From a virus (taxonomy: Duplodnaviria; Heunggongvirae; Uroviricota; Caudoviricetes): a stretch of 64,000 nucleotides of DNA. The notes under the pieces are model-generated. The model was not told where the DNA came from. It worked only from the letters and a program-made list of their open reading frames with translations, and did no database searches. The stretch covers positions 59,159 through 123,158 of IMG/VR virus record IMGVR_UViG_3300014024_000069, one strand, 5' to 3'. Position numbers and translations under genes: made by a program. Positions 7,121-58,661 of the stretch are shown here, in pieces; position 1 is the first letter of the stretch; the number at the start of each line of letters is the position of its first letter.

Positions 7121-7159
7121 GGTGTTTTCCCGTGTTTCTGGAGACTGGACTATCACTTA
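7121..7159. repeat. Left arm of a 38/39-bp inverted repeat (partner at 7443..7481) flanking a ~280-bp AC-rich segment
   Basis: ggtgttttcccgtgtttctggagactggactatcactta is the reverse complement of taagtgatagtccagtctccagaaacacggggaaacact (1 indel). Confidence 0.85.
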
Positions 7160-7442: not shown

Positions 7443-7481
7443 AAGTGATAGTCCAGTCTCCAGAAACACGGGGAAACACTT
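7443..7481. repeat. Right arm of the inverted repeat
   Basis: See the left arm. Confidence 0.85.
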
Positions 7482-8293
7482 CTCAACCACACCCCACGGC
7501 AGCACCACCAACAAGCGAGGGCATCATCACCAAAAGACCAACCCTTACGCAAGAACAAAACCCAAAGACACACAGCAACACGCCCCACATCTTGATAAGG
7601 CGACGGACGTCAGAAAACACATGCTCCGTATCCGATGGATACAACCGCACGCCTATTGCGACCCCCAAAAAGATAACCCCCTACAGTTATCCGAACACCC
7701 CTGACGAGCAGAACATAGTACGCGGACCTCGAACCAGAACCCCACGCAAAACCATCACGTGCCCAGCGCGCCGGGCACTCACAGGCAAGAGAACGACCGC
7801 ACGTCAACTATGCGAACTGTCCTTATACGCAACAGACCACACAACGACACCGAAACCACAAATGCAACATACCCCCATGAAAGGCCGATCACGCCACACC
7901 CACAATAGGCGTACCCGCTCGCCAGCACGTGCGTGCATAATGAAACCCCCACCTGCTCCACATAAAGTAAAACAAGCGGGGGTGATTCACTCCACTCAGA
8001 AAAAGATGGGTTCCTAAAACCCAAAACAAAGAATAACACACAGTAAGCAAGAAAGCGAAACGACACACAAGCACTAATCCAAACGCCCGTGCCACCCCAC
8101 TACAAGTCAAGACCCCAACAGGAGCTAATAGCCCACCCTCTTACTTGCTCCCACAAGGGATCATTGGAAATACACCCCTCAGAAACTCCGCCAGCATTTC
8201 ACCTAGATAACCCACCCCAACCACACACCACCCCGCCGCAAGTTTTCAAAGACGACACCCCATGTGGTACACTATGACCATGCACATGCGCAT

Positions 8294-8378
8294 GGAAGTG
8301 TGGCAGAGCGGACTATTGCACCTGTCTTGAAAACAGGAGTGTCGAGAGGCACCGTGGGTTCAAATCCCACCACTTCCG
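8294..8378 (+). tRNA. tRNA-Ser (anticodon TGA), type II with long variable arm; no encoded CCA
   Basis: Cloverleaf read directly: acceptor GGAAGTG/CACTTCC, D-stem GCA/TGC, anticodon stem CCTGT/ACAGG with loop CTTGAAA, long variable arm AGTGTCGAGAGGCACC, T-arm GTGGG-TTCAAAT-CCCAC, discriminator G. Confidence 0.8.
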
Positions 8379-8636
8379 CAAAACAACCACCATCACCCCT
8401 TGCAGGGAACACTGATGGTGGTTTTCCTTATGAACACACCCACAATGCAACCCTTGCGAGCATCCTTGCCTCCAACACTATTCCTAAACATGGGCTGGTT
8501 CAAGAAGACCAGCCACACCCCCACCCACACTCTGGTTGCCCTGGTTGTCTCCGCCACGAAACCCGCACAAGAAAACCCTGCGACACACCCCGCATGTGTT
8601 TTGACCAGCGCCCCGAAACGCAATAAAATACACTAC

Positions 8637-12394: not shown

Positions 12395-12450
12395 AAACCG
12401 CCAATCCCGCACCCCCTCTATACCACCAACAACACGAAAGGAAGCACAAC

Positions 12451-14455: not shown

Positions 14456-14580
14456 TAAAGCACAAAGCAAAGCGCCCATTCTTCACCCGCAAACATGGGC
14501 AAGATGGGCGCTTTGCTTAAACAACAACATCTCTCCCCAACTAACCTCACCTCCACTACTGCTGACTGCTAGGACACGCA

Positions 14581-17040: not shown

Positions 17041-17046
17041 ACAACA

Positions 17047-17718
17047 TTGACTGCGAAAAACAGCAAAGAAAAAACCGCCATAGACTTAGGCGACGGCAGG
17101 AGACTGGAACTATACAGAGACTATGGCAGAGATCCCAAACACCATCCCGTATCTGAAATCACGCTAGTAAAAGAACCACCAGAGAGCAAGGACACCAAAA
17201 AGATTGTCAATACAGCGCTTTTATCTGCACTGAGCGCGGTAATCGCACTGGTGTCACTCGTATTGTCTTTCGTCATGTATGGCAACATGTGGGGCTGGTT
17301 AGTGCTCATATTGGTTACCGTAGCATCTGCAGGGCTTGCCATTAGAAACCTCATCTCTACATTGCGGTTGATTCAGTTCAACTATCGAGAAAAGGAAGAG
17401 GGGAGGATTGACATTTACCATATGAACGAGCGGTACCTTGATGAAATTGAACGTCTCCAGGCAATCAACATCATCATGCCTGACCTTATAAAGATGCAGT
17501 CTAAACAGATCATTGAAAAGCTCGCAGACGGCAAACAGGACTACCAGTTGAAAAGACACCAACTACGGCGAATCATCGAGGATATGGAAAAAGATGCGGC
17601 TGAAACCTACAATCCCAATCCTGACAACAAAAAGAGCATTTTCATGCAAAAAAATGACACGGAAGAAACTGTCAATGTAGGTGATGTGTCGTCAAACGAA
17701 ACTCAAAACCAACAGTAG
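17047..17718 (+). CDS. Hypothetical membrane protein (223 aa, TTG start), two TM helices followed by a charged coiled-coil-like tail
   Basis: ORF directly follows paralog 3, with AGGAA 8 nt upstream of TTG. Hydrophobic stretch ALLSALSAVIALVSLVLSFVMYGNMWGWLVLILVTVASAGLAI. Confidence 0.5.
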   Translation: MTAKNSKEKTAIDLGDGRRLELYRDYGRDPKHHPVSEITLVKEPPESKDTKKIVNTALLSALSAVIALVSLVLSFVMYGNMWGWLVLILVTVASAGLAIRNLISTLRLIQFNYREKEEGRIDIYHMNERYLDEIERLQAINIIMPDLIKMQSKQIIEKLADGKQDYQLKRHQLRRIIEDMEKDAAETYNPNPDNKKSIFMQKNDTEETVNVGDVSSNETQNQQ

Positions 17719-17810: not shown

Positions 17811-18323
17811 ATGTACGTTATGGATAACGACCAACACAGCAGGGCTGTTGTCAAGGAAATCAGCAAAAACTGGTATAGACTACTTCCACAATCAAGCGCA
17901 GGCGACTATCAATCATGGTTACTCAGGGAGGGCGATGATGCAGAAAAACACACCACACTGAATAAAAAAGTCACCCTTCTTGATGTCGAGAACCAGGAAG
18001 ACAAAAACCAGATAAGGTCACTGGAAAATGGGGGAACTTTCACAATAAAAGATGAGCTACTTGAATACTATTTGCGAAAACTGGGTGTGAAGAAAACACC
18101 CGAGTTAAAGAACGGTATCGTTAAGCTAACAGTATCCCCTGATGTTTCTCAACAGGGTAGACTTACTGGATCTACTGCCGTCTTGGTCCGTAAGCTAAGC
18201 TCTTCTCTTCACCTGCAGATTGCCCCGGAAACCGGCATTGATGGAAAGCTTGCGCGCGTTGTTCTGCACGCCCGCATGGTTGATGTAGACACTAAGAAAG
18301 CGGTTTTTGCTGTTCTGGAATAA
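17811..18323 (+). CDS. Hypothetical protein (170 aa)
   Basis: ORF with coding-strand A+C bias; no recognisable motif. Confidence 0.45.
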   Translation: MYVMDNDQHSRAVVKEISKNWYRLLPQSSAGDYQSWLLREGDDAEKHTTLNKKVTLLDVENQEDKNQIRSLENGGTFTIKDELLEYYLRKLGVKKTPELKNGIVKLTVSPDVSQQGRLTGSTAVLVRKLSSSLHLQIAPETGIDGKLARVVLHARMVDVDTKKAVFAVLE

Positions 18324-18541
18324 CCTCAGTGCAGGCAGCCACCCCATCCTAGCCTTTTGCCCTTGCCTATTACCGCGAGCGGGGCGCGGGTCTATTACGC
18401 AACAAGAACCCCCTTGTTGGTAGCCATCGTGGCGACTATCAGCAAGGGGGTTGAACCAATTCCCATCCTCTACATTACACTCAATGGCAAGGAATAAGCA
18501 AACCTTACGGGCGCGCGCCCAATCGCGGGACGCAGTGAGGG

Positions 18542-19222
18542 CTAATATTCCTCAAGCTCGCTTAGGTCAATGGAATTTCCACTTCTCAGCGTTTTAAGTG
18601 TGTCCCTGATCTCCATCTTGTTTTGGCGGCGCCGACTCCGGTTAACCGTCTTTGGTTCTGGTTGCTCACGGTAGAAATGCGCGACAGATCGCCAACCACC
18701 AGTGAGCATACGGAAAAGCATGAGACGGTGCGCGTCGTGCTTGAACACCATCGCGTCAAGTGGGGCAACCCTACGACGGGGCGGAAGCTCGAAAATATGA
18801 GCAATAAAATCCCTGTGGCTGCCCGTGATAGGTGAAATCCACATCAGGTAACGCTTATTGTCACGCCGATAAACTTTGGTGCGCGGTAACGCAATGCCTT
18901 GATGCATAAAGTCACGCAGAGCAGTATCTCTGCTATTGGCGCTGCTGGAATTTTGGCTAGACTGCTTGTTTAGGATGTACTCAGCTATGGATTGCTCCAA
19001 GTGGTCAAAATTATGTTCAAACCACTTCACATCCAGGCGCTCCGAACTGTCCTTTAGTGTACCCATGACAATTCCAGCTGAACTGTTCACCCATACAGCG
19101 TCAGTGTGAGCAAGGCCCAACGGTCTAGCGTCACGAGGAGGGGAATAGGCAGGCGGGTAACCTTCCCCCGTGATGAGCCTATATGCTACATATTTGGGGA
19201 TATTTTTGTATGTTCTAGACAA
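18542..19222 (-). CDS. Hypothetical protein (226 aa)
   Basis: Long ORF on the minus strand with composition typical of coding sequence here; no motif recognised. Confidence 0.5.
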   Translation of the reverse strand: MSRTYKNIPKYVAYRLITGEGYPPAYSPPRDARPLGLAHTDAVWVNSSAGIVMGTLKDSSERLDVKWFEHNFDHLEQSIAEYILNKQSSQNSSSANSRDTALRDFMHQGIALPRTKVYRRDNKRYLMWISPITGSHRDFIAHIFELPPRRRVAPLDAMVFKHDAHRLMLFRMLTGGWRSVAHFYREQPEPKTVNRSRRRQNKMEIRDTLKTLRSGNSIDLSELEEY

Positions 19223-19549: not shown

Positions 19550-19655
19550 TGGCGTAAAGAAGCAGAACAGGGAAATGTCAATGCCGCACAGTAGTTAGGC
19601 ATTGAAAAACCGCACCTTCCCTAATGTTAAGGGTTGGGTGTGGTTTTTGTTTAAG

Positions 19656-19737
19656 TGCGCCTGGGGAGAGTCGAACTCCCATGCCCGTAGGCGCTGGAAC
19701 CTAAATCCAGTGCGTATACCAGTTCCGCCACAGGCGC
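19656..19737 (-). tRNA. tRNA-Leu (anticodon TAG), type II
   Basis: Reverse complement: GCGCCTG-TG-GCG-GAACTGGTATA-CGC-A-CTGGA-TTTAGGT-TCCAG-(13-nt variable arm)-GGGAG-TTCGACT-CTCCC-CAGGCGC-A. Confidence 0.8.
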
Positions 19738-19792
19738 ATTAGTGAGAGCAGGAAATGACGAACGTGTGCTAAAAGCACTTCCTGCCCTCAAG

Positions 19793-19865
19793 CTCCGCTG
19801 GGTGGACTCGAACCACCAGCCGCCCGGTTAACAGCCGAGTGCTCTGCCAATTGAGCTACAGCGGA
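19793..19865 (-). tRNA. tRNA-Asn (anticodon GTT)
   Basis: RC: TCCGCTG-TAGCTCAATTGGCAGAGCA-CTCGG-CTGTTAA-CCGGG-...GTGGTTCGAGTCCAC-CAGCGGA-G. Begins 1 nt after the CCA of tRNA-Trp. Confidence 0.8.
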
Positions 19866-19866
19866 A

Positions 19867-19942
19867 TGGAGCGAGCAACGGGATTTGAACCCGTACTTAC
19901 TGCTTGGAAGGCAGTTATGCTAGCCGTTAACATTATGCTCGC
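19867..19942 (-). tRNA. tRNA-Trp (anticodon CCA), CCA encoded
   Basis: RC: GCGAGCA-TA-ATGT-TAACGGCTAG-CATA-A-CTGCC-TTCCAAG-GCAGT-AAGT-ACGGG-TTCAAAT-CCCGT-TGCTCGC-T-CCA. Confidence 0.8.
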
Positions 19943-19966
19943 AAAAAGGGAATCTCTTCCCTTTAG

Positions 19967-20042
19967 TCGGGGTGACGGGATTTGAACCTGCGATCTCCTG
20001 TTCCCAAAACAGGCGCTTTAGCCCAAGCTAAGCTACACCCCG
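19967..20042 (-). tRNA. tRNA-Pro (anticodon TGG)
   Basis: RC: CGGGGTG-TA-GCTT..AAGC-G-CCTGT-TTTGGGA-ACAGG-AGATC-GCAGG-TTCAAAT-CCCGT-CACCCCG-A. One A:C mismatch in the T-stem. Confidence 0.65.
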
Positions 20043-20117
20043 CAAGGTGAACGCTACTCATGATGGACATTGAATGTTTTGCAGTTGGTTGTGTGGACCC
20101 CAGCACAAGTATCGTCG

Positions 20118-20189
20118 CTGACCTACTAGGACTCGAACCTAGAAAGCTGGCACCAAAAACCAGCGTGTTGCCAATTACACCATAGGTCA
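20118..20189 (-). tRNA. tRNA-Gln (anticodon TTG)
   Basis: RC: TGACCTA-TG-GTGT-AATTGGCA-ACAC-G-CTGGT-TTTTGGT-GCCAG-CTTT-CTAGG-TTCGAGT-CCTAG-TAGGTCA-G. Acceptor stem perfectly paired. Confidence 0.8.
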
Positions 20190-33542: not shown

Positions 33543-33620
33543 TGGTGCCCTTGGCAGGATTTGAACCTGCAACCTTTTCCGTATCAGAGAAACGCTCTCA
33601 CCAGATTGAGCCACAAGGGC
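33543..33620 (-). tRNA. tRNA-Ile (anticodon GAT), CCA encoded
   Basis: RC: GCCCTTG-TG-GCTC-AATCTGGTGA-GAGC-G-TTTCT-CTGATAC-GGAAA-AGGTT-GCAGG-TTCAAAT-CCTGC-CAAGGGC-A-CCA. Confidence 0.8.
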
Positions 33621-33622
33621 TT

Positions 33623-33699
33623 TGGTACCGGAAGCGGGACTTGAACCCGCATCGCCAGTCTTATGAGGACTGTGCTCTACCGAATTAAGCTATTCCGGC
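33623..33699 (-). tRNA. tRNA-Met (anticodon CAT; elongator-type, or a tRNA-Ile2 candidate), CCA encoded
   Basis: RC: GCCGGAA-TA-GCTT-AATTCGGTA-GAGC-A-CAGTC-CTCATAA-GACTG-GCGAT-GCGGG-TTCAAGT-CCCGC-TTCCGGT-A-CCA. No initiator features (no three GC pairs in the anticodon stem; 1-72 is G:U). Confidence 0.7.
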
Positions 33700-33706
33700 A
33701 TGACCG

Positions 33707-33780
33707 TGCCCCAGGCGCGACTCGAACGCGCATCCTCCAATTACGGCTAACGGGGTAGAAGCCCGCACCGATACAAGGGC
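33707..33780 (-). tRNA. Atypical tRNA-like gene, 74 nt, with a good T-arm and acceptor but ambiguous D/anticodon arms (candidate anticodon TCT or CCG)
   Basis: RC: GCCCTTG...GCGCG-TTCGAGT-CGCGC-CTGGGGC-A; the acceptor pairs at 6 of 7 positions. The best internal anticodon-like hairpin is GCGGG-CTTCTAC-CCCGT (TCT), but it leaves no canonical D-arm. An alternative hairpin is CCGTT-AGCCGTA-ATTGG (CCG). Confidence 0.35.
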
Positions 33781-33833
33781 ATTAGTAGCCACTTACCCCA
33801 CGACAAGTAGAATGCCGCATGGGTTGTGTCTAG

Positions 33834-33905
33834 TGCCCCTACCAGGACTCGAACCTGGACCTCCACTTTAGGAGAGTGATGCTCTATCCATTGAGCTACA
33901 GAGGC
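33834..33905 (-). tRNA. tRNA-Arg (anticodon CCT)
   Basis: RC: GCCTCTG-TA-GCTC-AATGGATA-GAGC-A-TCACT-CTCCTAA-AGTGG-AGGTC-CAGG..-TTCGAGT-CCTGG-TAGGGGC-A. Confidence 0.75.
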
Positions 33906-33933
33906 AATATTTCATGGTGAATTTCACCACTAG

Positions 33934-34005
33934 CACTCCCAACGGGATTTGAACCCGTGCTATAACCTTGAAAGGGTTACGTGCTGACCATTACACTATG
34001 GGAGC
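33934..34005 (-). tRNA. tRNA-Glu (anticodon TTC)
   Basis: RC: GCTCCCA-TA-GTGT-AATGGTCA-GCAC-G-TAACC-CTTTCAA-GGTTA-TAGC-ACGGG-TTCAAAT-CCCGT-TGGGAGT-G. Confidence 0.75.
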
Positions 34006-35314: not shown

Positions 35315-36004
35315 TTATCCCAATGGGCGTTCAGATTGCCCTGACACCCAATCAGTGACCTCTCTGAATACCTCATTGACGAACCCTTGTTGGATTTGCT
35401 TTTCACCTGAGTAGTTGCTTGTTCCTGTGGCGCCGTCGAACGTTTCAACACCCCAGCTTTTCACGTATTTTTCCCATCGATGGTAGGAGTCTTCCCCAAA
35501 ACCTTCTGTGGATTCTTCTGAGCGTCCGTATAGGTAGATGCGTAGTTGCTGGTCTGGTTTGTGTTTGCGGTACAGGATTGCGGTGTCGATGTAGTCGCCG
35601 TTGTATTTGGTGCTGTTGGGGGTTTCACCCATGTTTCGTTCGTAGCAGGCCCGAGGGTATGCGACGTCTATTCCGGGTAGGAAGTTGAATGATTCCCCAA
35701 AATCACGGGCGTTGAGCACGGTGAGGATGTTTTCTTCTGGGAATGACACACTGTCGCCCGCGACGTGTACGGGTTTGTTGTTGAGGATGTTTCTGCGTTC
35801 AGTAATTTTCGCCGTGAGCCACTGCAAGTACTCTTTATGTTGCTCTTCTGGTGTTTTCTGCGCGAATGTTTGCCTCACGCTAGGGGCGCGTAGAACACCA
35901 CTAGCGGATGCTGGGCTACGCCCCATAGCTCTTGTGTTGAGGCGACCGAAAATGTACCTTTGCCGCTCCGTTCCTGGCCCGCCCTGAGCCATGCCGTTGT
36001 TCAT
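35315..36004 (-). CDS. Hypothetical protein (229 aa) carrying an N-terminal leader MNNGMAQGGPGTERQRYIFGRLNT shared with the ArdC-like protein
   Basis: ORF; the first ~22 aa are near-identical in pattern to the N-terminus of the 57402..58661 protein. The rest is unrelated and not recognised. Confidence 0.55.
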   Translation of the reverse strand: MNNGMAQGGPGTERQRYIFGRLNTRAMGRSPASASGVLRAPSVRQTFAQKTPEEQHKEYLQWLTAKITERRNILNNKPVHVAGDSVSFPEENILTVLNARDFGESFNFLPGIDVAYPRACYERNMGETPNSTKYNGDYIDTAILYRKHKPDQQLRIYLYGRSEESTEGFGEDSYHRWEKYVKSWGVETFDGATGTSNYSGEKQIQQGFVNEVFREVTDWVSGQSERPLG

Positions 36005-36132: not shown

Positions 36133-36837
36133 TTACTGTATCCCGTTTGGTGTTCTGCAGCCTTTATCTTGCGGGATGGCTGAGGTTATTTTCCATCCGT
36201 TTTCGGTTTCTTGCGCGAGCACGATCCAGGATGATGAACCGTTCACAGTGTCGGCGGCAGCGTGATAGTCAACGTAACGGACTTGCTGTTCGTTTTGCTT
36301 CATGCACAGCACCATTGCCTCCTCGCGGGCGCCGGCGTCACGGTGCGAGGGGTAGGGGTATTTGTCTGCGTCGAAGACGGTGACGGAACTGAGAATGTCG
36401 GGTTTGCCCATGAAAATCCCAGTTGAGTTTCTTCCGGTTTTCAGCATGCCGCTGACTGCGGGGGTGTATATGTCGGATTTGCGGTCGTCTTTGATGAGTC
36501 GGGTGTCTCCTTGCACGTCCGCTAACCCACCGAGTTTGACGTTTTCCCAGGTTTGCCGGTAGAGGGCGGTGGCCGCGTCCACTGCGTCGTGGGCGTAGGT
36601 GGTGTCGCTTGTTTTGTCGTTGGTGATGTCAACGTTTGCCATTGGTGCGGTGTCTGGGGTGGTGTATGCGTCCACGGTAGGTGTGTTATGCCAGTAGAGC
36701 TGTGTGACAATGCCGAAGGCGGCGACCACGGCTACCGCGCCGCTGATGATGGTTGTGGTGCGGTATTTGCGTTTAGCGTTGTCGTTTTCCCAGGTGTGTG
36801 TGCTTGTGGCGGCGAGGGTGGTGTTATTTCCGGGCAT
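36133..36837 (-). CDS. Membrane-anchored (N-terminal TM) extracytoplasmic protein (234 aa)
   Basis: TTTIISGAVAVVAAFGIVTQLYW TM helix near the N-terminus; Thr/Asp-rich ectodomain. Confidence 0.5.
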   Translation of the reverse strand: MPGNNTTLAATSTHTWENDNAKRKYRTTTIISGAVAVVAAFGIVTQLYWHNTPTVDAYTTPDTAPMANVDITNDKTSDTTYAHDAVDAATALYRQTWENVKLGGLADVQGDTRLIKDDRKSDIYTPAVSGMLKTGRNSTGIFMGKPDILSSVTVFDADKYPYPSHRDAGAREEAMVLCMKQNEQQVRYVDYHAAADTVNGSSSWIVLAQETENGWKITSAIPQDKGCRTPNGIQ

Positions 36838-37450
36838 CGTCGATTTCCTTTGCCTTTTTCTTTGTCATGACGGTGTACATTTGGTGGACTCGCCATACTT
36901 TGTCGTCGCCGCGAACAAGGATAGTGATGACATCATCCTCAAAAGGTTCACTATCGGCGGTGGTTTTGAGGCGCATTTTCGCCATGACAAACCGCACAGG
37001 GCGGTTGTCGTCGCTTTTCATCCCCAGCATTTTACTGTTGTCGAAGTGAGTGCCAAGGATTGAGTCTTGCTCATCGTCAACATAGCCGTGATTGCCGTTT
37101 TTAGTGTATTCAAACAGTTCCTTACGTGAAAGAACCTCCACCGGCATGAAATCCTGCGTCGTACCCGTGGACGGCAGAACATTGGGGCGCGGCAGTCCCG
37201 TGTAATTCCCGTCAGCCTCCGCAGCGTATTTCAACACCGCCAGAGCGTTACCCTGCGCTATATCCTCCATGCGTTCCACATCAGAAGGTGGGGGCTGTTT
37301 ATCAACAATGCTGCGGGAATATGACACATACGTGTCAAGCACATCCCCTTTTCTACTTTCCTTCACCCATATGCCAATACACCCAATGGTGAGGCAGATA
37401 GCCAAAATAGCGGTCACTGCGGCGATGATTTTGTACTTCTTGTCCCCCAT
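36824..37450 (-). CDS. Membrane-anchored or lipoprotein-like protein (208 aa)
   Basis: MGDKKYKIIAAVTAILAICLTIGCIGIWV: signal-anchor with Cys. Confidence 0.5.
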   Translation of the reverse strand: MGDKKYKIIAAVTAILAICLTIGCIGIWVKESRKGDVLDTYVSYSRSIVDKQPPPSDVERMEDIAQGNALAVLKYAAEADGNYTGLPRPNVLPSTGTTQDFMPVEVLSRKELFEYTKNGNHGYVDDEQDSILGTHFDNSKMLGMKSDDNRPVRFVMAKMRLKTTADSEPFEDDVITILVRGDDKVWRVHQMYTVMTKKKAKEIDDARK

Positions 37451-37452
37451 GA

Positions 37453-38394
37453 TTACTGTGCCGCCTCTGGTGCGTTGGTGTACAAGTCACTAAGCTTCCA
37501 CCCGCCATTGGCTTTATGCCACGTGGTGAACACATCCAGCCTTGTTGGTTCAGCAATCACATTGCCTGCAGCATCAAAGAAACCAATCTCCATATGGTAG
37601 GAACGCCCTGTTTTATTCCCAGTGTCATTCCACCCAGTGGCAGTTCCCTGAATGCTTTCCTCCAACAGTGTGACCTTTGTGTAAGCGTCTTTTTCCATCA
37701 ACTGTTCCCATCCTGCCGTGGGGTTAGGGTCAGCTGCGCATACGCTCTTAAGGCGACGCGCCAACGGGGCTTCAATCCACTGTGACTGATACCCAGCAAT
37801 AGCACACGTCATGTGCGGGTAATCCTGCACCCTGAAAGTGTACATGTTACTAATCATGTCTTTAGCCCGCTGCGACAATGCCTTGTCAGTACGCTCATTA
37901 GCAAGCTTCTTCCAATCCTCAGCAGGCTTACCCCCCACGTAATTATTACGCTCAACAGGGTTTTTAAACACATCACCCCACAAGGTAAGCCCAGACTCAT
38001 CAGAATGATTCCCACGGTAACGTTGGTACACAGTCTCCCCATCAGGATTCACCAACTGAGCCTTATTCTCACCAGGAAGCGGCGCACGAGTCTTATCATT
38101 CTTCTTACTGGGCGCTGAACTAGTTGTCGGGGCGGAAGACACAGACCCCTCACCCGTGGTACCACCATCCCCATCAGAACGCCCCCCGCCACGATACTGC
38201 TCACCCAACACCGTGGAAGAACCACCACCTCCATCCTGCTTGCCACTATTACGGTTCATCAACACAAAAACCGCCCCCGCAACAGCAACCACAACAACCG
38301 CAATAATCACCGCAGCCTTAACAAGCGTCCTACGCTCCTCAGCCGTATACGAACGCCTCTTCTTTTTCTTATTCCGACCATCATCAACAGCCAA
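37453..38394 (-). CDS. Membrane-anchored extracytoplasmic protein (313 aa) with a Gly/Ser/Thr-rich linker
   Basis: Basic N-terminus, TM helix AAVIIAVVVVAVAGAVFVLM, then a G/S-rich low-complexity linker and a C-terminal globular domain. Confidence 0.5.
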   Translation of the reverse strand: MAVDDGRNKKKKRRSYTAEERRTLVKAAVIIAVVVVAVAGAVFVLMNRNSGKQDGGGGSSTVLGEQYRGGGRSDGDGGTTGEGSVSSAPTTSSAPSKKNDKTRAPLPGENKAQLVNPDGETVYQRYRGNHSDESGLTLWGDVFKNPVERNNYVGGKPAEDWKKLANERTDKALSQRAKDMISNMYTFRVQDYPHMTCAIAGYQSQWIEAPLARRLKSVCAADPNPTAGWEQLMEKDAYTKVTLLEESIQGTATGWNDTGNKTGRSYHMEIGFFDAAGNVIAEPTRLDVFTTWHKANGGWKLSDLYTNAPEAAQ

Positions 38395-38539
38395 AACAAA
38401 ACCCTTTCACAAAAACAATAGAACCAAAAAATTACTACCACCCATTATATGAGTCTTCACCAAACACAATCAACGAACAGCAACACCACCAAAACAACCC
38501 CTCAAGCAGAAGCAAAATAATCACCCACAAAAACACCCA

Positions 38540-38583
38540 AACCCGGCGCGCCTGCGTTTTTGTTTATGGTGGCGCGCCGGGTT
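38540..38583. terminator. GC-rich palindromic hairpin (AACCCGGCGCGCC...GGCGCGCCGGGTT) flanked by an A-run on one side and a T-run on the other; likely terminator for the upstream large gene
   Basis: 13-bp perfect stem with a T-rich loop; on the minus strand it is followed by TGGGTGTTTTTGTGGG. Confidence 0.6.
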
Positions 38584-38610
38584 GTTTCCCTGTTTTTTAT
38601 GGTGTTGGGG

Positions 38611-41600
38611 TTACCATTTGCGGTTGCCTTTCCACATTGCTTCTATTGTGGGGTCTAGGCGTTGTCCGCTGGGGATTGGGTTGCCGAGTTCTTGTGGGTG
38701 TTTTGCGTTGAGTGGGCGGAATAAGTAGGGGCCTACGTTGGGGCGTAGGACGCTGGTGTTTACGCTCACTTGGTCGGGTTGTGGGGCATCGTCGGTAGAT
38801 GATTCTGCTATCTTCCCGTTACCTACATACATCCATGTGTGATGTCCATCATAGGAGCCTAGATCTGCTTCATTGACAAATAGGTCTCCTGGTTTGAGGT
38901 CTTCTATTTTAATATTTGAGGATGTTTGCGGGGTTGCGAGGGTAATGTTTTGTTTTCCCTGCATATTAGTGACAAGCTGGCTTGTGACAAAGGGAGATGC
39001 GTTGACATCGCCAAACCAGATCCCAGCTCCGTTCCAATATGCCCATGACACGAAACTTGAACAGTCGGTGTAAGTAGGTCGTGGGTTAGTCAACGTGGTA
39101 CGCAAACTGCTCATACTGTAGTAGGTTTTAAGTCCCTGGAACTGGCCTGTTTCGTTGGCGTAGTCGGTGGCGATTTTCACGACACGCCCGCTGAGGGTGT
39201 TTTCGTTAACGTCCATTTGACCGCCCTCGCCCTTGCTGCTGAGTGAGGATGCGTCGCATTCCGCGCCGACCTCGGCAAAGATGGTGGGCGACGTGTCGGT
39301 GGACAGTGCGTCTGCTTTAAGGTCGCGGGATAGGCGCACCTCGATTTGGCGTGCCGCGTCCCAGTATTTGTCAACGAGTCCCATTTCCACGCCGGTGCTT
39401 GTTCCTGCTTGTCCTTCACCGAGCACGGATCCTTGGACGCGGGAGGCTGCTGTGTTCCATTCTCCTTGTGAGCTGGCGGGGGTGAGTCCTTGTGATTTTC
39501 CTTTGAGCCGGTCGAAGAAGAGCTGCGCCGCGAATCCGGGGTCCATTGCGCGTTCCCACACGGCCCATGTTTGCTGTTCGGCGCGGCTGCCGTCGGGGTT
39601 GAGCTGTACCTGCTGTTGATAAATACCAACGGAGTTCAGGTCGGAGTCGCTGTCGATTTCACGCCTCGGATCGTCCATTGATTTCGCCATGTATTCGGAT
39701 CCGCCGGGAATGATGGAACCGCTACCACCTAGCGGTGAGGCTACACCGTTGGTGGGTGATTTGCCGCGCCACGGCCTGCCGCCGTAGTTGCCGTAGTTAG
39801 TGAAACGGGTCTCATTGAAACTGATTTTCAGTGCGGACAGCACTGCTCGTTTGTCGAACCCCATTTTCTGCCCCACGGCAATGATGGTGCGGATATTGTT
39901 GATTTGGTTGGCAGTGAACATGCCGTCACCCTCGGTGACTTTATGCGGGTCAGAGACACTGTTCCCACCACCACCTGATTGTTGCTGGTGCTGGGCGGGT
40001 GCTTGCGCACGTCCCCCGCCAGCGTTGCCTCCACTGTTGCTTCTCCCCCCACCGTTGTTGTGACCACCATTTTGGCGCGCCGCTGCCGGTGCGCTGACAC
40101 CCCCGCCGCCTGCAGGTGCTGCGGCTGCGGCTTGCCCTGGGTTTAACTTGGTGGACTTATCCAAATAGGGTTGCGGGTTGGTGCTACTTGCGGCACCACC
40201 TTTCCAGCCCCCAGGGTGGATTTCAAAGTGCAGGTGCGGGCCTGATGATTGACCCTCGCTGCCTTGTTTAGCGATGACTTGACCTGCTTTAACCTTGTCG
40301 CCTGCCTTAACCCGGAAGGTACTGATGTGCATGTGCCCGTACACGTGGTCAATTACTTGCCCGTTGATGTTGGATTCAATGACAATCCAGTATCCGAAAC
40401 CGCTGGCGGCGCCGGCTTGTTTCACGGTGCCGTCTGCCCATGCGAGGATTTCATCACTTCCACCAGCTGCGGTGGCAATGTCCATGCCGTAGTGGTTTTC
40501 GCGCCCTGGTCCACGGTAAGGGCTGGTCACAACTGCCCCGTTGTACATGGGGTAGATGAGTTTACCCTCGAAGTTGCCGCCCGCGCCTGCGCGGCAACCG
40601 GATCCGTCATTATCGACGTTGGGCAGCCCGTCCGCCACGGCACTGCGGGCACCTTCCAGGTAGTTTTGGTATTTGCCTGAGCTGTAGCCCTTGAAGCCTG
40701 CCCACCCGTCACGGTCTTTGGCGACCTTGGCCACGCGCACATTGTTCCATGCGTTTTCTAGTTTCTCTGACCATTGGTCCGCCTCGCCACCGTATTTGGT
40801 GTCTTTATTAATACCGAACAAGCCCTTGTGCTTCCCGGAAGACCACCCAGGATCCCCGCCTGAGATTGACAGAGCGACAGCGGCCGAGTGAATGGAATCC
40901 TCGTCGTTGAAACCGGCTTTCCTGGCGATGGCAACCAGCTCACCAACGGTGTACTTTTTGCCTTCTTTTGGCGGTCCAATAGCATCACCACATGTGGTTC
41001 CTGATTCGCTATCAGCATAAGAGTCGCTGCCAGCCTCATTGTCGTAGCGTTGGCACAGGTCATTGTCGGAAGGGTCGTCGTTTTTCATGATGGACGTGCC
41101 GCTGATGCTGCCAATCCCCGCTGCCATTGCGATGAGAATCACAATAAGAAGAATGGAGCCTGCCGCCACCAAGGCTGTGCCCACGCCACCAACGTTGCCG
41201 AGTCCAGGGATGTTAGACATGCCCATTTGCGGGGGTTTGCGTGGCGGCATGCTGCCGCCCATCTTGTCGTCATCGTCTTTGTTGCGTTTCGGTTTGTCAC
41301 GCATCTGGTCGCCGGTGACATCATCTTCTAGGTTGGATTGTGGACCGGCACCCACTTCCCTGCCAGCGAGTCCGCCCCTGTTGGTTCTGGGCACACCGAA
41401 CAGGTCTTTAGGTGTGGCAGCATCCCCACCAACACCCTCTGCGTCTGGGGTGTTTTTCTTACCCGCAAGGTGCCCTTGTTTGTTGGCGGCGTTGGTGCTT
41501 AATGCCTCTGGATCCGCGTTTTTATCAGGATTACCGAACGGATTCTTCCCATTCGGCTTCCCTAGTGGAGTGCCAAAAGGATTGTTCTTACCATTGGTGT

Positions 41601-42501
41601 TGGCGGCACCGGTTGGTTGCGCTCCACCATTGCTGAACAGTCCACCATCCCCGAAACCGCCGAGCTTGTCTATGTCGCTGGGGTCGGTGGGCAATTCCTC
41701 CAGGATTGGTTCATCATTCCCGCCATCGCCACCGCTGGCGGATTTGCCTGCTGGGGTTCCCGCGCCGCCTGCCGCACCATCAGGGGTTCTTTCAGCACCC
41801 CCTGGCGGCTGTTCCCCCTGCCCAGTGCGGCGTGGTTCCCCGCTGTTGTCGCGGGGTGTGGCATTGTCTGTGGGGCTGCTGGTGTCTTTTTCTGTGCCGC
41901 TGAGGCTCGCGGCGTTCGCATCGGTGGGGCGGGACTCGTCGCGGGGTGTTGTAGTATCCCAGGGGTTGTTTCTATTCGTGTCCTTGCCTGGTGTTCCGAA
42001 TAGGTTGGCTGCGTTTTTCTCGCCGGCGCCGTTTCCGTCGTCGCGGTTGTTGCCTAGCCCGAAGGGATCCTGCGGGTCATCACTATTTCCCGATTCGTCG
42101 CTGTATCGATTATTGGGGTAGTCTTCTGCACTGTTGGCGGGTTCCCCATCGCGGGGTTTTTCGTTGATGTCGTTGAACTGTACGTCATCGCCGTCTGGGT
42201 TGCGGGTGATACGGGGTTGTGCGCTGCGGTCGCCTGATGCGCGATGAACGAATCTCGCTTCCTCCTCAGGCATATCCACAAGGTGGGAGTAGTCGTTGTA
42301 TACCCCATCGTTCATTGTGAGGGGTGAGGGGTTGTTTCCCGCTCCGATTCCATCGGCAAGGTTACTTGCCTCCTGGTCGGTGAGGTTTTGTCCTTCTAAT
42401 TGTTCCCCTAGTTCGCGGGCTGTGCGCTCGTTGTCGCGTTCCAGCGATGAGCGGATTTCCTCATTGATGTTGTCGTCATTTGGTGTGTTTTTTTGTGCCA
42501 T
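38611..42501 (-). CDS. 1296-aa membrane-anchored multi-domain peptidoglycan hydrolase: ~450-aa G/P/N/D-rich low-complexity N-terminal region, one TM helix, lysozyme/transglycosylase-like module, M23 (LytM) peptidase, and a C-terminal NlpC/P60 cysteine peptidase
   Basis: TM helix ALVAAGSILLIVILIAMAAGIG. The M23 signature is HYGMDIATAAG...DHVYGHMHIS...GPHLHFEIHPGG. The NlpC/P60 module is TYTDCSSFVSWAYWNGAGIW...GDLFVNEADLGSYDGHHTWMYVGNGKIAESS (Cys...His...His). The SLT-like segment is ...VALSISGGDPGWSSGKHKGLFGIN.... Confidence 0.8.
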   Translation of the reverse strand: MAQKNTPNDDNINEEIRSSLERDNERTARELGEQLEGQNLTDQEASNLADGIGAGNNPSPLTMNDGVYNDYSHLVDMPEEEARFVHRASGDRSAQPRITRNPDGDDVQFNDINEKPRDGEPANSAEDYPNNRYSDESGNSDDPQDPFGLGNNRDDGNGAGEKNAANLFGTPGKDTNRNNPWDTTTPRDESRPTDANAASLSGTEKDTSSPTDNATPRDNSGEPRRTGQGEQPPGGAERTPDGAAGGAGTPAGKSASGGDGGNDEPILEELPTDPSDIDKLGGFGDGGLFSNGGAQPTGAANTNGKNNPFGTPLGKPNGKNPFGNPDKNADPEALSTNAANKQGHLAGKKNTPDAEGVGGDAATPKDLFGVPRTNRGGLAGREVGAGPQSNLEDDVTGDQMRDKPKRNKDDDDKMGGSMPPRKPPQMGMSNIPGLGNVGGVGTALVAAGSILLIVILIAMAAGIGSISGTSIMKNDDPSDNDLCQRYDNEAGSDSYADSESGTTCGDAIGPPKEGKKYTVGELVAIARKAGFNDEDSIHSAAVALSISGGDPGWSSGKHKGLFGINKDTKYGGEADQWSEKLENAWNNVRVAKVAKDRDGWAGFKGYSSGKYQNYLEGARSAVADGLPNVDNDGSGCRAGAGGNFEGKLIYPMYNGAVVTSPYRGPGRENHYGMDIATAAGGSDEILAWADGTVKQAGAASGFGYWIVIESNINGQVIDHVYGHMHISTFRVKAGDKVKAGQVIAKQGSEGQSSGPHLHFEIHPGGWKGGAASSTNPQPYLDKSTKLNPGQAAAAAPAGGGGVSAPAAARQNGGHNNGGGRSNSGGNAGGGRAQAPAQHQQQSGGGGNSVSDPHKVTEGDGMFTANQINNIRTIIAVGQKMGFDKRAVLSALKISFNETRFTNYGNYGGRPWRGKSPTNGVASPLGGSGSIIPGGSEYMAKSMDDPRREIDSDSDLNSVGIYQQQVQLNPDGSRAEQQTWAVWERAMDPGFAAQLFFDRLKGKSQGLTPASSQGEWNTAASRVQGSVLGEGQAGTSTGVEMGLVDKYWDAARQIEVRLSRDLKADALSTDTSPTIFAEVGAECDASSLSSKGEGGQMDVNENTLSGRVVKIATDYANETGQFQGLKTYYSMSSLRTTLTNPRPTYTDCSSFVSWAYWNGAGIWFGDVNASPFVTSQLVTNMQGKQNITLATPQTSSNIKIEDLKPGDLFVNEADLGSYDGHHTWMYVGNGKIAESSTDDAPQPDQVSVNTSVLRPNVGPYLFRPLNAKHPQELGNPIPSGQRLDPTIEAMWKGNRKW

Positions 42502-53590: not shown

Positions 53591-55411
53591 TTGAAAAAAA
53601 CAGGGAAAATCGCAGGTAAACTCAAAAAAACGGTGACGATAATCACAATGCTGGGGCTGACCGCAGGCACCCTCGGAGCAGGGGGATTCACCTACCTCTA
53701 CGCCACCGCAGACATACCGCACCGCGCCGGGACGCATACGATGTCGGAAATTCATTTTGTCACTTCTGATGGTGTGAATGTTGCGACGGTGCAGCCACCA
53801 GATGGGGAGAAGCAAGGCACGTCGCCTGCCGCTATTTCGCAGTATATGAAGAACGCCATTGTTGCTTCTGAGGATGGTGGGTTTTGGGAGCATTCGGGGA
53901 TAAATCCTAAGCGTATTGCGGCGGCCACGGTTCAGCATGCTTTGGGTCGTAGTGGTGGTGGCGCATCTACGATTACTCAGCAGTTGGTGAAAAACACCAT
54001 TGTGGGTGATGAACATTCGCTTGATCGTAAGGTTCGTGAGGCTGCCTATGCGTTAAAGGTTACGAACACGAAAACTAAGGATGAGGTGCTGAGTGATTAT
54101 CTGTCCATTGTGTATTTCGGACGTGGCGCGTATGGAGTTGAGGATGCGGCACGGAAGTTCTTTGGGGTCAGCGCGCTTGATTTAAATCCCGCCCAGTCGG
54201 CGCTTTTAGCGGGTATGGTACAGTCCCCCTCGGCGTTGGACCCTGATGTCAATCCAGAGGGCGCTAGGGAGCGTTTTAACTACGTTGTGGACCGCATGAA
54301 GCACGATGGGTATATTCCGCAGGGCGCACAAGTGGAGTTCCCGGAGCTAGTGTCGCCGCCTCCGCCTAAAGTCACTGTTGGTGTGGACGGGGATTATGGG
54401 CATGCGGTAAGCATGGCGTTTGCCGAGTTGGAATCAATGGGCATTGATCGCACCACTTTGCACAATGTGGGTGCCACGGTGACGTTGACTGTCAACGATG
54501 CGAAACAGCGTGCCGTACAGAACATTGTGCGCAGTCACATTGGTGGGGATTTGCGGGCTGCTGTGGTGTCGATGGACTCTGCTAACGGTGGTGTCGTTGC
54601 CATGTATTCGGGTGAAGACGGTTTGGGATTCAACTACGCTACCGCAGGGCAGATGACTGGTTCCACGGCTAAGGTTTTTGCGCTTACTGCCGCTATGGAG
54701 CGCGGTATACCCGCGTCAAAGACGTACTCGTCTGCGCCCTACAATGAGGGCGGCGTGAGCGTCACAAATTCCTCTGTTGCGTCCTGCACGGCATGTAGTA
54801 TCACCCAATCCACGGTGGAGTCGTTGAACACCTCGTATTTGCGTATTCAGAATGATATTGGTGGTGCTACGGAAACCCAGAACATGGCGTGGCGTTTGGG
54901 TGTGCCTCGTGAAATAAACGGTGAGGCAAGCCTCGGCGGCGACCAGCCCTACGACGGAATTGTGCTAGGGCAGTACCTCACCGCACCCATTGACATGGCG
55001 AACGCTTACGGCACTATCGCCTCTGGTGGTAAACGTCACCAAGCCCACATCGTTGCGGGCGTGAACACCATGAAGAAAAGCACACTGTACGAGTTCCACG
55101 GCAAAGAAGACCCCGTAATCAGTGAACAAACCGCAGCGCAAGTTAGTAACGTGCTCTCTGGGGTTGCTGACTACAGTAATCATAATCAACTCGCCGGTGG
55201 CGGCGGGAAAATGAAAACAGGGACAGTCCAGCTAGGTTCAACAGGGGAAAACCGTGATGCGTGGACAGTGGGTTTCGTTGATGGTGGGCTATCCACAGCC
55301 GTGTGGGTTGGCAGCGACAATGGTGTGCCTTTGTACTACGGAGGTGGGAAAATGTGGGGTGCCACATTGCCCGCAACTATGTGGAGGCAAACCATGAATG
55401 CCATTCGCTGA
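53591..55411 (+). CDS. Bifunctional class A penicillin-binding protein (GT51 transglycosylase plus transpeptidase), 606 aa, TTG start
   Basis: N-terminal TM helix. GT51 motifs: EDGGFWEHSG, GGGASTITQQ, RKVREAA. Transpeptidase motifs: STAKVF (SxxK) and KMKTGT (KTG). Confidence 0.8.
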   Translation: MKKTGKIAGKLKKTVTIITMLGLTAGTLGAGGFTYLYATADIPHRAGTHTMSEIHFVTSDGVNVATVQPPDGEKQGTSPAAISQYMKNAIVASEDGGFWEHSGINPKRIAAATVQHALGRSGGGASTITQQLVKNTIVGDEHSLDRKVREAAYALKVTNTKTKDEVLSDYLSIVYFGRGAYGVEDAARKFFGVSALDLNPAQSALLAGMVQSPSALDPDVNPEGARERFNYVVDRMKHDGYIPQGAQVEFPELVSPPPPKVTVGVDGDYGHAVSMAFAELESMGIDRTTLHNVGATVTLTVNDAKQRAVQNIVRSHIGGDLRAAVVSMDSANGGVVAMYSGEDGLGFNYATAGQMTGSTAKVFALTAAMERGIPASKTYSSAPYNEGGVSVTNSSVASCTACSITQSTVESLNTSYLRIQNDIGGATETQNMAWRLGVPREINGEASLGGDQPYDGIVLGQYLTAPIDMANAYGTIASGGKRHQAHIVAGVNTMKKSTLYEFHGKEDPVISEQTAAQVSNVLSGVADYSNHNQLAGGGGKMKTGTVQLGSTGENRDAWTVGFVDGGLSTAVWVGSDNGVPLYYGGGKMWGATLPATMWRQTMNAIR

Positions 55412-57401: not shown

Positions 57402-58661
57402 CTATTCAGCTTTCTTTCTCCTGGTTGTGCGTTTTGTTGCCTTCTTTGTCGTGCGTTTGCGGGGTTTCCGCTTAGTTGTGGTTTTACCTGCGGCTTTCTT
57501 TTCTGCGTAAGCTTTACTGGACCGCTCTGACACGGCTTTCGCCTGGTCTATCTGATTCTCACCATTGACAATATCCTCCAGCGTTGAAAAGTACTTCTGC
57601 ATACCTTTCTGAACGCCACCCATAGCGTCTTTGATTTTCTGCTCATCGCCCCCAGTCCAACTAGCAAGGTAAGCCTGCGATGACTTTGAGGTATTCCCCT
57701 CACCATAGGCCCTCAAAATGCCGTAAGCAACCGTCTCCGCCTCCGCTTCTGCCTGTTCTCGTGTGAACTTTCGGTCTGGGTTTCGGGCGATGTGTCCACA
57801 CATGATGTGCCCCATTTCATGCGCAAGCGTCTCAGCTGTCTGCATTCCCTCCAATTCTTCACGTAGAACAATATAAGGCTTGCCGTCTTCCCCTAGTGTT
57901 GCGTATCCTTGTGGCGATCCGATTTCGCTTTGCGGCAATCGCTTAATCTCAATATCCATTTTCTTGGCGACAGCTTCCAAATCCTGAATCATGGAGTCAT
58001 TTGTTTTAGCCTTTGCCATGATTTCTTGTTGCTTTTGGAAATAGTTGTTCAGGGGACTTTGGGGTAGGCTTTTCACCGATTCGTCTAGGTCTTCATTTGA
58101 GAAAACACTATATTCCTTGAACGCTGTGTAATGGGTTTCTTTTTTATCCTTATCTTCCTGTTTGTCATCACTGCCGTTTTCGCTTCCGTTGTTATCGTCT
58201 TCTTTCTTCTTTTTCTTGACAAGGATTGGGCGCAGAATCTTTGCCGCCTTAGCGCCTTTACGCACCTGATAGCCGTCTTCTGCCCATTGCTTATAGGTTC
58301 GGAATGTATGCCCAGTCGGTTTCTGCAACATGAGCAAAATAGTGTTGTTGAACGAATAACTATAGCGACTACGCAGGAAATCCAGGTACTCATCCAATCC
58401 TTCCTGACTTTCCATGATGTTCCGCATGCCGTCACTTAGCTCAGACAGCATCGCTTCCGTAACATCCTTGCCATGCAAACCGGCAAACGACACGCGACCC
58501 TCACTGGTGGTGGCAGCGGAAAGAGTCGCCCCGATAGAGGGAGCTAGGCTCGCCGCCCCCGCTGCGGCGGCCGCTGGGGGTTCGTAGTTCGTGTTTTCCC
58601 TTCCGAAAATCATTCTCTGATGCTCTGAACCTGGTCCGCCATGAGCCATTCCTTTAACCAT
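57402..58661 (-). CDS. ArdC-like protein (ssDNA-binding ArdC-N domain plus C-terminal HExxH metalloprotease) with a 60-aa N-terminal extension carrying the shared leader
   Basis: Strong SD GAGGAA 6 nt before ATG MVKGMAHGGPGSEHQRMIFGRENT. The ArdC-N pattern is SFNNTILLMLQKPTGHTFRTYKQWAEDGYQVRKGAKAAKIL. The metalloprotease motif is LAHEMGHIMCGH. An internal poly-Lys/acidic linker is present. Confidence 0.7.
   Translation of the reverse strand: MVKGMAHGGPGSEHQRMIFGRENTNYEPPAAAAAGAASLAPSIGATLSAATTSEGRVSFAGLHGKDVTEAMLSELSDGMRNIMESQEGLDEYLDFLRSRYSYSFNNTILLMLQKPTGHTFRTYKQWAEDGYQVRKGAKAAKILRPILVKKKKKEDDNNGSENGSDDKQEDKDKKETHYTAFKEYSVFSNEDLDESVKSLPQSPLNNYFQKQQEIMAKAKTNDSMIQDLEAVAKKMDIEIKRLPQSEIGSPQGYATLGEDGKPYIVLREELEGMQTAETLAHEMGHIMCGHIARNPDRKFTREQAEAEAETVAYGILRAYGEGNTSKSSQAYLASWTGGDEQKIKDAMGGVQKGMQKYFSTLEDIVNGENQIDQAKAVSERSSKAYAEKKAAGKTTTKRKPRKRTTKKATKRTTRRKKAE

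Follow-up and report, generated by a model that had tools for sequence, protein, structure and literature searches.

What is a cell-wall hydrolase with the build of a conjugation enzyme doing in the genome of a tailed virus? The question is raised by a 1296-residue protein encoded in a 64,000-nucleotide stretch of the IMG/VR virus record IMGVR_UViG_3300014024_000069 (Caudoviricetes; positions 59,159 to 123,158 of the record), which we call the window. An earlier note on this stretch, made from the letters alone, had likened the protein both to the wall-breaching modules of Gram-positive conjugation systems and to phage tape-measure or tail-lysin proteins. We examined the window together with two 10-kb stretches beyond its right end, that is ~84 kb of a genome of ~321 kb. 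On the sequence evidence set out below, the gene product is a bitopic, multi-domain peptidoglycan hydrolase. Our preferred reading, to which we assign a probability of about 0.5, is that it is a tethered, PrgK-like enzyme which is shared with, and was probably acquired from, actinobacterial conjugative elements, and which would breach the wall from within the infected cell.

The open reading frame (ORF) and the hydropathy scan agree with the earlier description of a membrane-anchored protein of this length with a single transmembrane (TM) helix (Table 1). Residues 434-472 are its sole strongly hydrophobic segment, with a Kyte-Doolittle peak of 2.79; the upstream flank is rich in lysine and arginine (RKPPQ), the downstream flank is acidic, and by the positive-inside rule these charges predict a topology with the N-terminus inside and the C-terminus outside. 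The region preceding the helix, which had been put at ~450 residues of G/P/N/D-rich low complexity and placed with a question mark in the cytoplasm, comprises 433 residues (G 14%, D 11%, N 11%, P 10%; 13.6% hydrophobic), and the cytoplasmic side is what the flanking charge predicts for it. It is acidic (76 D+E vs. 45 K+R) and has no match in Pfam or PHROGs. Six FG dipeptides occur in it, five of them as [ND][PL]FG; six of its nine phenylalanines precede a glycine, a count equalled in just 2 of 5000 shuffles.

The ORF is not a chance one, because it has an orthologue of 1297 residues (P0001) that is 91% identical and lies in conserved gene order on syntenic metagenomic contigs of up to 321 kb. 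The positions of the FG motifs are kept in P0001. Identity between the two proteins is 94-100% in the catalytic domains, 100% in the TM helix, 87% in the disordered N-terminus and 54% in the linker at residues 780-858, which, as far as sequence can tell, is the pattern expected for a working enzyme.

Two of the outer modules named by the earlier note were recovered in a Pfam domain search with their catalytic residues in place. Peptidase_M23 scored 79.5 bits (cut-off 28.7), and NLPC_P60 scored 26.8 bits, or 28.8 bits with the C-terminal module alone (cut-off 23). The M23 domain has the motifs H670xxxD674 (H670-YGM-D674), H723 and H756xH758 (H756-L-H758), and among its matches in PDB are 9gy1 (E 1.7e-20) and the domains of LytM, lysostaphin and zoocin. 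The NlpC/P60 domain retains D-C1147-SSF and H1220/H1221.

The domain between these two (residues 859-1060) was not recognised by Pfam. A profile built from it and the protein P0003 (37% identity), run against 1.84 billion representative proteins, gave 179 matches, of which the distant ones fall in two blocks that bypass an insertion of ~45 residues rich in G, S and P. A family alignment of 26 members (A4) has an invariant glutamate (E897 in the hydrolase) and an invariant S-x-G-x-x-Q-Q block, and the A4 profile matched 8b2h (E 1.3e-40) and 8b2e (E 4.5e-35) in PDB and no other structure. These are the founding structures of GH184, a muramidase family (Kionochaeta and Thermothielavioides enzymes; PMC10394673). 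Glu41 of KsGH184 (8b2e), shown by mutation to be essential (PMC10394673), aligns with E897, and by our residue count Asp66 and Ser69 of GH184 align with D954 and S957. AlphaFold2 returned a model of pLDDT 79.4 and pTM 0.83 with the 26-sequence alignment, compared with a pLDDT of 35 when only three sequences were supplied. Foldseek ranked 8b2h and 8b2e as the top two matches to this model (probability 1.0, TM(target) 0.63-0.65), with goose lysozyme, MltF and phi29 gp13 far lower. By profile and by model, residues 859-1045 are a GH184-family domain, predicted to be a muramidase. It shares with the fungal enzymes the sequence family, the fold, the catalytic Glu and the D...S-G-x-F/Y-Q-Q block. 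It differs in that the characterised members are small secreted proteins, often with an SH3-like wall-binding domain, whereas the phage copy has the ~45-residue insertion and forms part of a bitopic, multi-module protein. Bacterial members of GH184 have been mentioned but not discussed (PMC10394673). We had also considered this domain as an SLT domain, and dropped the assignment when an hhalign comparison of the C-terminal module with a Mycobacteriales M23/SLT/P60 family aligned the NlpC/P60 domains and nothing else.

The transglycosylase-like module of the earlier note thus stands in part: a predicted glycosidase is present, of the GH184 kind and at residues 859-1045. The segment with lysozyme-like similarity, residues 524-600, reached 18.6 bits against SLT_3, under the Pfam cut-off of 27, and its catalytic Glu appears to be missing, since in our reading the string 'LSISGGDP' has Ile where an SLT-type 'ESGG' has the glutamate. 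No match in PDB or PHROGs was found for this first ecto-domain (residues 480-645), and an alignment of residues 505-640 with the tape-measure protein of the Lactobacillus phage phig1e was rejected as a spurious extension of the M23 match. Residues 505-640 are probably a non-catalytic wall-binding remnant. At the other end of the chain, the R, P and L of the C-terminal tail and its final W...K-W are invariant across six divergent relatives (alignment A5).

Table 1. Features of the hydrolase gene and of its surroundings, in window coordinates.
Feature	Position	Strand	Basis or remark
Hydrolase gene	38611..42501	(-)	1296 aa, ATG start; ORF and translation
Hydrolase, disordered N-terminus, aa 1-433, predicted cytoplasmic	41203..42501	(-)	Composition, hydropathy
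Hydrolase, TM helix, aa 434-472	41086..41202	(-)	Kyte-Doolittle, flanking charge
Hydrolase, ecto-domain aa ~505-640, weak lysozyme-like (SLT_3) similarity at aa 524-600	40582..40989	(-)	Sub-threshold Pfam
Hydrolase, Peptidase_M23 (LytM-type metallo-endopeptidase), aa 669-765	40207..40497	(-)	Pfam PF01551
Hydrolase, flexible linker, aa 780-858, G/A/S/N/Q-rich	39928..40164	(-)	G 25%, A 18%; flanking domains 100% identical to P0001
Hydrolase, predicted GH184-family muramidase domain, aa 859-1045, with ~45-aa G/S/P-rich insertion and Glu897	39367..39927	(-)	Profile, fold, catalytic Glu
Hydrolase, NlpC/P60 cysteine peptidase, aa 1142-1238	38788..39078	(-)	Pfam PF00877
Hydrolase, C-terminal tail 'RPLNA...MWKxNxKW', aa 1255-1296	38614..38739	(-)	Alignment A5
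Intergenic region: GGCGCGCC...GGCGCGCC hairpin and T-run, then TTGATT-18-TATAAT promoter-like site	38395..38610	(-)	Consensus matches only
313-aa N-terminally anchored extracytoplasmic protein	37453..38394	(-)	TM aa 20-50
208-aa N-terminally anchored protein	36824..37450	(-)	TM aa 5-32
234-aa N-terminally anchored protein, last of the trio	36133..36837	(-)	TM aa 26-49
43-aa N-terminal motif M..GMA.GGPG[TS]E.QR.IFGR.NT	35870..36004, 58533..58661	(-)	229-aa protein and ArdC-N + M78 protein, respectively
Three consecutive N-terminally anchored proteins, 298, 201 and 205 aa	30071..32440	(-)	Hydropathy
ClpB-like AAA+ protein, 1601 aa	24500..29305	(+)	AAA domains aa 562-758, 1278-1501
Class A penicillin-binding protein	53591..55411	(+)	Motifs EDGGFWEHSG, GASTITQQ, STAK, SLN, KTG intact

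A search with the full-length hydrolase returned the orthologue and one M23 protein only, with low-complexity words interfering, and the ectodomain was used as the query instead. Its best M23 matches are proteins of Corynebacterium, Dietzia, Nocardia and Gordonia, and its matches include Mycobacteriales proteins in which the domains are ordered M23/SLT/P60 or Rpf-like/M23/SLT/P60. The C-terminal module (GH184 plus P60) had no tblastn match among 50,697 phage records, and matched five actinobacterial plasmids, four of them from Corynebacterium. Residues 658-1227 are colinear with the hydrolase of the Corynebacterium callunae plasmid pCC2 (WP_015453153; 27.7% identity over 575 columns, E 7e-32), which has the same succession of M23, GH184-like middle and NlpC/P60 domains and an N-terminal membrane anchor. 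The pCC2 protein is encoded inside a MOBF/MPF_T conjugation locus with a coupling-type protein and a MobF relaxase; the homologue on the Curtobacterium plasmid pC1c is flanked by an 854-aa ATP-binding protein and an FtsK/SpoIIIE protein. The likeness to Gram-positive conjugation hydrolases that had been suspected from the architecture is thereby confirmed and, judged on these alignments, it is real homology at the family level. The pCC2/Mycobacteriales family (for example, Rhodococcus P0029 and Nocardia P0008) differs from the phage protein in its length of 520-660 residues, in an anchor at the extreme N-terminus and in having no long cytoplasmic region. P0008 has a leading transglycosylase-like domain, and so the same four-module order as the phage hydrolase, whereas proteins of the P0029 type have a Pfam SLT domain in place of GH184.

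The closest parallel in overall plan is PrgK of the Enterococcus plasmid pCF10 (DELTA-class type IV secretion system, T4SS), which we compared by its published description and not by sequence: an intracellular N-terminal part, a TM helix, LytM, muramidase and CHAP domains, working together with the bitopic protein PrgL (PMC11323569). The module order is the same, and the phage gene is likewise followed by genes for bitopic proteins. There are several differences. The muramidase of PrgK is of the SLT type and that of the phage hydrolase of the GH184 type; LytM is degenerate in PrgK, whereas the M23 and P60 catalytic residues of the phage protein are kept; and the phage protein has a 433-residue disordered cytoplasmic region with FG motifs, an additional lysozyme-like module ahead of M23, and a gene that lies in a phage with no T4SS found. 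CwlT of ICEBs1 is a conjugation hydrolase with two activities (muramidase plus NlpC/P60) and an N-terminal anchor or signal. Its two-module logic is also that of the many proteins of 360-430 residues with GH184-like and NlpC/P60 domains that our searches recovered. By description, CwlT differs from the phage hydrolase in that its muramidase is of another family, it has no M23 module and it is associated with a T4SS.

The phage-type subfamily is small, with six proteins at E values up to 1e-10 in the entire library. One of them, P0125 (1122 aa), mirrors the plan of the hydrolase, with a low-complexity N-terminus of ~295 residues, one NPFG and a TM helix at residues 296-331. A signal peptide is found in P0127 and P0128 (~890 aa), the former of which also contains a GDSL esterase domain. 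The N-terminus of P0003 resembles a signal but stays under the hydropathy threshold, and its M23-like barrel is degenerate; in P0124 the hydropathy scan detected no hydrophobic segment. A clear hydrophobic segment for export or anchoring, N-terminal or internal, is present in four of the six relatives checked. P0125 and P0127 were not found in IMG/VR. In three divergent lineages, replication genes surround the hydrolase gene, and at least one gene for a bitopic membrane protein comes after it; the homologues on contigs L002 and L015 have primase, SbcC and methyltransferase genes as neighbours. Export segments and gene setting alike point to a protein that acts in the producing cell and is not carried by the virion.

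This gene context bears on the possibility that the hydrolase is a virion-borne entry enzyme, packaged in the tail or capsid, ejected on infection and drilling the wall of the recipient from the outside, its TM helix and disordered N-terminus helping to form a membrane channel or to thread it, in the manner of tape-measure and tail lysins, phi29 gp13 or T7 gp16. Several matches point that way. The hydrolase domains match PHROGs labelled tape-measure, tail protein with lysin activity (phrog_1015, hit by the NlpC/P60 domain at E 1.7e-10) and minor head protein; the PDB matches of the M23 domain include the phage internal/ejection proteins 9k2v and 9m7n; GH184-like domains occur in actinophage LysA and tape-measure proteins and in one Gordonia virion structural protein; and in phi29 gp13 a lysozyme fold like that of GH184 occurs together with an M23-like domain (PMC10394673). 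The genes of jumbo phages are, moreover, often scattered. Set against this, the gene lies amid replication, nucleotide-metabolism and rII genes, with primase and SbcC-type neighbours and no recognisable tail or head gene beside it, in all three lineages, and the closest full-length homologues are cell-membrane proteins from conjugation loci. The N-terminus is disordered and not a long helical ruler, the nearby genes include those for an RNA ligase, an AAA ATPase, rIIA/B and tRNAs, and the TM flanks fit the positive-inside rule, as expected of co-translational insertion. Nor does the hydrolase carry the 43-residue N-terminal motif that we found on two other proteins of the window (see below). 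Combining M23, GH184- or lysozyme-like and NlpC/P60 domains is common to actinophage LysA, tape-measure and minor tail lysins and phi29 gp13. However, LysA proteins are cytoplasmic, have no TM helix and belong to lysis cassettes; a tape-measure protein is a long helical ruler whose gene lies in a tail module; and gp13 is a tail-knob protein. None of them combines a disordered N-terminus of 433 residues with a TM helix in mid-chain, and for no phage record did the alignment cover 80% or more of the hydrolase query. We consider a virion-borne role, and with it the tape-measure or tail-lysin alternative of the earlier note, unlikely.

What kind of element carries the gene was judged from the rest of the window and from its right flank. 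Megablast of 30-50 kb against phage and plasmid collections gave no match. A viral contig of 234 kb, IMGVR_UViG_7000000510_000049, agrees with the window at 100% identity in the hydrolase module and 96% in the primase, and near-identical contigs of 321,201 and 321,202 bp occur in independent assemblies. Encoded in the window are rIIA- and rIIB-like proteins, an RNA ligase, NrdE, a primase and an Mre11/SbcD-type exonuclease, as well as an ArdC-N + M78 protein, a ClpB-like protein and an AAA ATPase; the orthologue, on contig L001, of the ORF adjoining NrdE carries HNH endonuclease domains. There are 11 tRNA genes between 8294 and 34005, in two clusters (19655..20189 and 33543..34005) and as singles. 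PHROG scans of the 20 kb to the right of the window recognised SbcC-like, clamp-like, SSB, helicase, RusA and WhiB-like proteins, the WhiB-like regulator being at 2642..3187 of L026, ~18 kb past the right end of the window. The WhiB family is associated with Actinobacteria and their phages, and the nearest relatives of rIIA are those of actinophages. From these genes, the element is very probably a jumbo actinophage of ~321 kb. Its host is probably Corynebacterium or a close relative, to judge by the plasmid and M23 affinities of the hydrolase, the WhiB-like regulator and NrdE, which is 60% identical to that of C. phoceense; our literature search for a described Corynebacterium jumbo phage gave indirect mentions only.

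The same inventory speaks to the idea that the hydrolase is a conjugation-like component of DNA translocation, encoded by a plasmid-like element or phage-plasmid that has its ATPase genes beyond the window. The homology to T4SS hydrolases is true and the architecture identical, an ArdC-like gene is present, and the part examined covers ~84 kb of the ~321 kb. Yet tblastn with all 30 transfer-locus proteins of pCC2 and pC1c matched the hydrolase alone, in the window and in five phage loci (L002, L006, L007, L008 and L015). Searches of Pfam, PHROGs and NCBIfam with the large ORFs, and tblastn, likewise found no VirB4/VirD4-like ATPase in the window, just as the earlier note had observed, and the contigs of the divergent relatives have no transfer genes nearby either. 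The flanks, which that note had proposed to inspect for tail genes or a T4SS, contained neither canonical tail genes nor a full T4SS in the part examined. Set against a conjugative element, too, are rIIA/rIIB, T4-like replication genes, the 11 tRNAs, WhiB and the listing in IMG/VR. The combination of ArdC-N with a metallopeptidase typifies the 'polyvalent' proteins that are co-transferred, and these occur in phages as well as in plasmids (PMC5512222). A translocation machine involving ArdC, as had been proposed, is not supported by the jumbo-phage-like nature of the element and the tblastn result for the window and the five loci, and we regard it as very unlikely indeed.

Under the preferred reading of a PrgK-like enzyme acting in the producing cell, the hydrolase would be made in the infected cell and inserted N-in/C-out through its single TM helix. 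The 433-residue disordered tail with its FG motifs would be left in the cytoplasm, and outside would hang a flexible chain of four modules: one that is lysozyme-like and probably not catalytic, then an M23 metallo-endopeptidase, a muramidase of the GH184 family and a cysteine endopeptidase of the NlpC/P60 type. That the bitopic protein exposes the last three on the outside of the producing cell's membrane is well supported by the predicted topology. It would cut glycan strands as well as peptide stems and cross-links in the wall nearest the membrane; because the enzyme is tethered, we infer that cutting is local and confined to the innermost wall, as is thought for conjugation hydrolases. A thick actinobacterial wall would be opened or weakened from within for the phage's own envelope crossing, which is the most economical purpose because no conjugation channel was found. 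By analogy with PrgK and PrgL, the hydrolase would work with the anchored 313-aa protein encoded next to it. The version that we favour, at a little less than even odds, is a tethered enzyme exported to bring about lysis or to prime it, which in function would resemble the multi-domain LysA of actinophages. Its module types correspond to the bond specificities of LysA, and some LysA proteins use a GH184-like domain. As an endolysin of the LysA/SAR kind it would be atypical, since no holin or esterase was recognised nearby and its TM helix is not N-terminal.

A number of observations weigh against an in-cell, wall-breaching enzyme of this sort. The ~84 kb yielded no gene for a capsid, terminase or tail protein, and the case for a phage is therefore built on non-structural hallmarks and on the listing in IMG/VR. 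For the anchored neighbours, no similarity to families of the VirB8/PrgL type, or to any other, could be detected. L002 and L015 each encode a separate GH25 muramidase (7754..8566 and 18071..18850, respectively), a candidate true endolysin whose N-terminus is weakly hydrophobic and whose gene is separated from the hydrolase homologue by a few others; no homologue of this enzyme was found in the window. Export before lysis needs restraint, and neither a holin nor an inhibitor was identified. We know of no lysis role for a 433-residue cytoplasmic tail, and virion proteins (tape-measure, minor tail and structural ones) often contain these catalytic domains too.

Also encoded in the window is a complete penicillin-binding protein (PBP) of class A that has every glycosyltransferase and transpeptidase motif. 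Its presence raises the alternative that hydrolase and PBP together remodel the wall or sustain its growth over a lengthy infection, for cell enlargement, for a block to septation, or for a receptor change that excludes other phages. Pairing of a synthase with hydrolases has a precedent in mycobacteria in the interplay of RipA (NlpC/P60), RpfB and PonA1. Three SPFH/Band_7 membrane proteins are encoded in the window, the tether would confine hydrolysis to the growth zone beside the membrane, and jumbo phages have been suggested to modify the wall so as to block rival phages (PMC7824862). The PBP gene is, however, 11 kb away on the opposite strand with no evidence of linkage, and three intact lytic activities in one chain look destructive rather than morphogenetic; remodelling is in our view a doubtful explanation. 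A broader scenario would have a jumbo phage of a mycolic-acid-walled host domesticate a conjugation wall-breaching unit with its anchored partners, perhaps together with the PBP, and use the FG tail to couple it to an intracellular structure or signal. We rate this as quite improbable; if true, the phage would control the opening of the wall by a route distinct from the holin-endolysin paradigm.

Each domain of the hydrolase, and its overall plan, is of a kind already known. What is new is a tethered hydrolase of the conjugation type in what is very probably a jumbo actinophage, away from structural genes and with no T4SS found, together with a predicted GH184 module bearing an insertion, a long FG-bearing region predicted to be cytoplasmic, and a conserved C-terminal tail. 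A 'hole-punching' hydrolase of conjugation thus appears to circulate in very large phages with no secretion channel found, which links two problems of envelope crossing that are usually studied separately and provides a concrete candidate for how giant phages of hosts with thick, mycolate-type walls pass the wall. GH184, characterised in fungi, is extended to actinobacterial plasmid hydrolases and to tape-measure, lysin and tail proteins of actinophages. A single chain with three chemically different predicted wall-cutting activities could also serve as an enzybiotic scaffold against walls of the Corynebacterium type.

The three same-strand genes downstream of the hydrolase do encode anchored proteins, with one N-terminal TM helix each, as the earlier note had reported. 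They are closely packed, with a 2-nt gap and a 14-nt overlap, and a GC-rich hairpin of 14 bp at 36074-36105, after the 234-aa gene, closes the trio. Neither the 313-aa nor the 208-aa protein matched any family in Pfam, PHROGs or further family scans, and a homologue search with the 313-aa protein returned near-identical copies only. In the distant contig L002, however, a 28%-identical homologue of it is encoded immediately downstream of the hydrolase homologue, with another anchored protein next in line; L015 has a single anchored protein after its hydrolase homologue. From this kept adjacency the 313-aa protein would seem to be a conserved partner of the hydrolase. When the anchored proteins were compared among themselves and against the bitopic proteins of the plasmids pCC2 and pC1c, the 313-aa protein and its L002 homologues gave the only significant match. 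A shared C-terminal 'G-W-K-(I/L/V)' pattern prompted the tentative idea that they might be NTF2/VirB8-like.

Whether the hydrolase heads an operon of these genes, as had been proposed, is doubtful. A hairpin with a T-run follows its stop codon, and the TTGATT-18-TATAAT site lies between this hairpin and the 313-aa gene, which suggests that the trio forms its own transcription unit and that hydrolase and trio are adjacent units and not one operon. On the upstream side, again as consensus matches only, the RNA ligase gene is followed by two hairpins, the second with a T-run, and a TATAAT box precedes the hydrolase start by ~60 nt. The palindrome GGCGCGCC occurs 14 times in the window (for example, at 35227, 36074, 38545, 38571 and 45863) against an expectation of 0.94, and none of 100 shuffles reached 14; at least four of the sites lie within intergenic hairpins close to the hydrolase region.

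The 229-aa protein beyond the trio had been described as bearing a leader. This was not borne out: it has no hydrophobic leader and begins instead with a motif of 43 residues that it shares with the ArdC-N + M78 protein (51% identity, E 2e-9). The motif is not a secretion signal, because it has no hydrophobic core; it may be a tag for packaging or targeting.

Another trio of anchored proteins, of 298, 201 and 205 residues, is separated from the hydrolase region by a tRNA cluster, and the L001 orthologues of the first two carry Band_7/SPFH matches. The ClpB-like protein is about twice the usual length, and the wide spacing of its AAA domains suggests a large insertion between them. The first ~8 kb of the window (1..8300) have no convincing ORF but an extreme strand asymmetry, with a GC skew of -0.23 to -0.36 and an AT skew of +0.2 to +0.5; a tRNA-Ser gene at 8294..8379 is the sole recognisable feature. 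At 9080..17718, on the plus strand, lies a family of five paralogues (1104, 450, 296, 819 and 223 aa) for which no Pfam or PHROG family was found. Three features recur among them in different combinations: a motif at the N-terminus, a degenerate block that resembles Hint/intein sequences ('LTNKGYIR…IACYNP'; intein_Nterm 17 bits, sub-threshold), and TM helices at the C-terminus with a conserved 'IIDAFTN…TRF' block.

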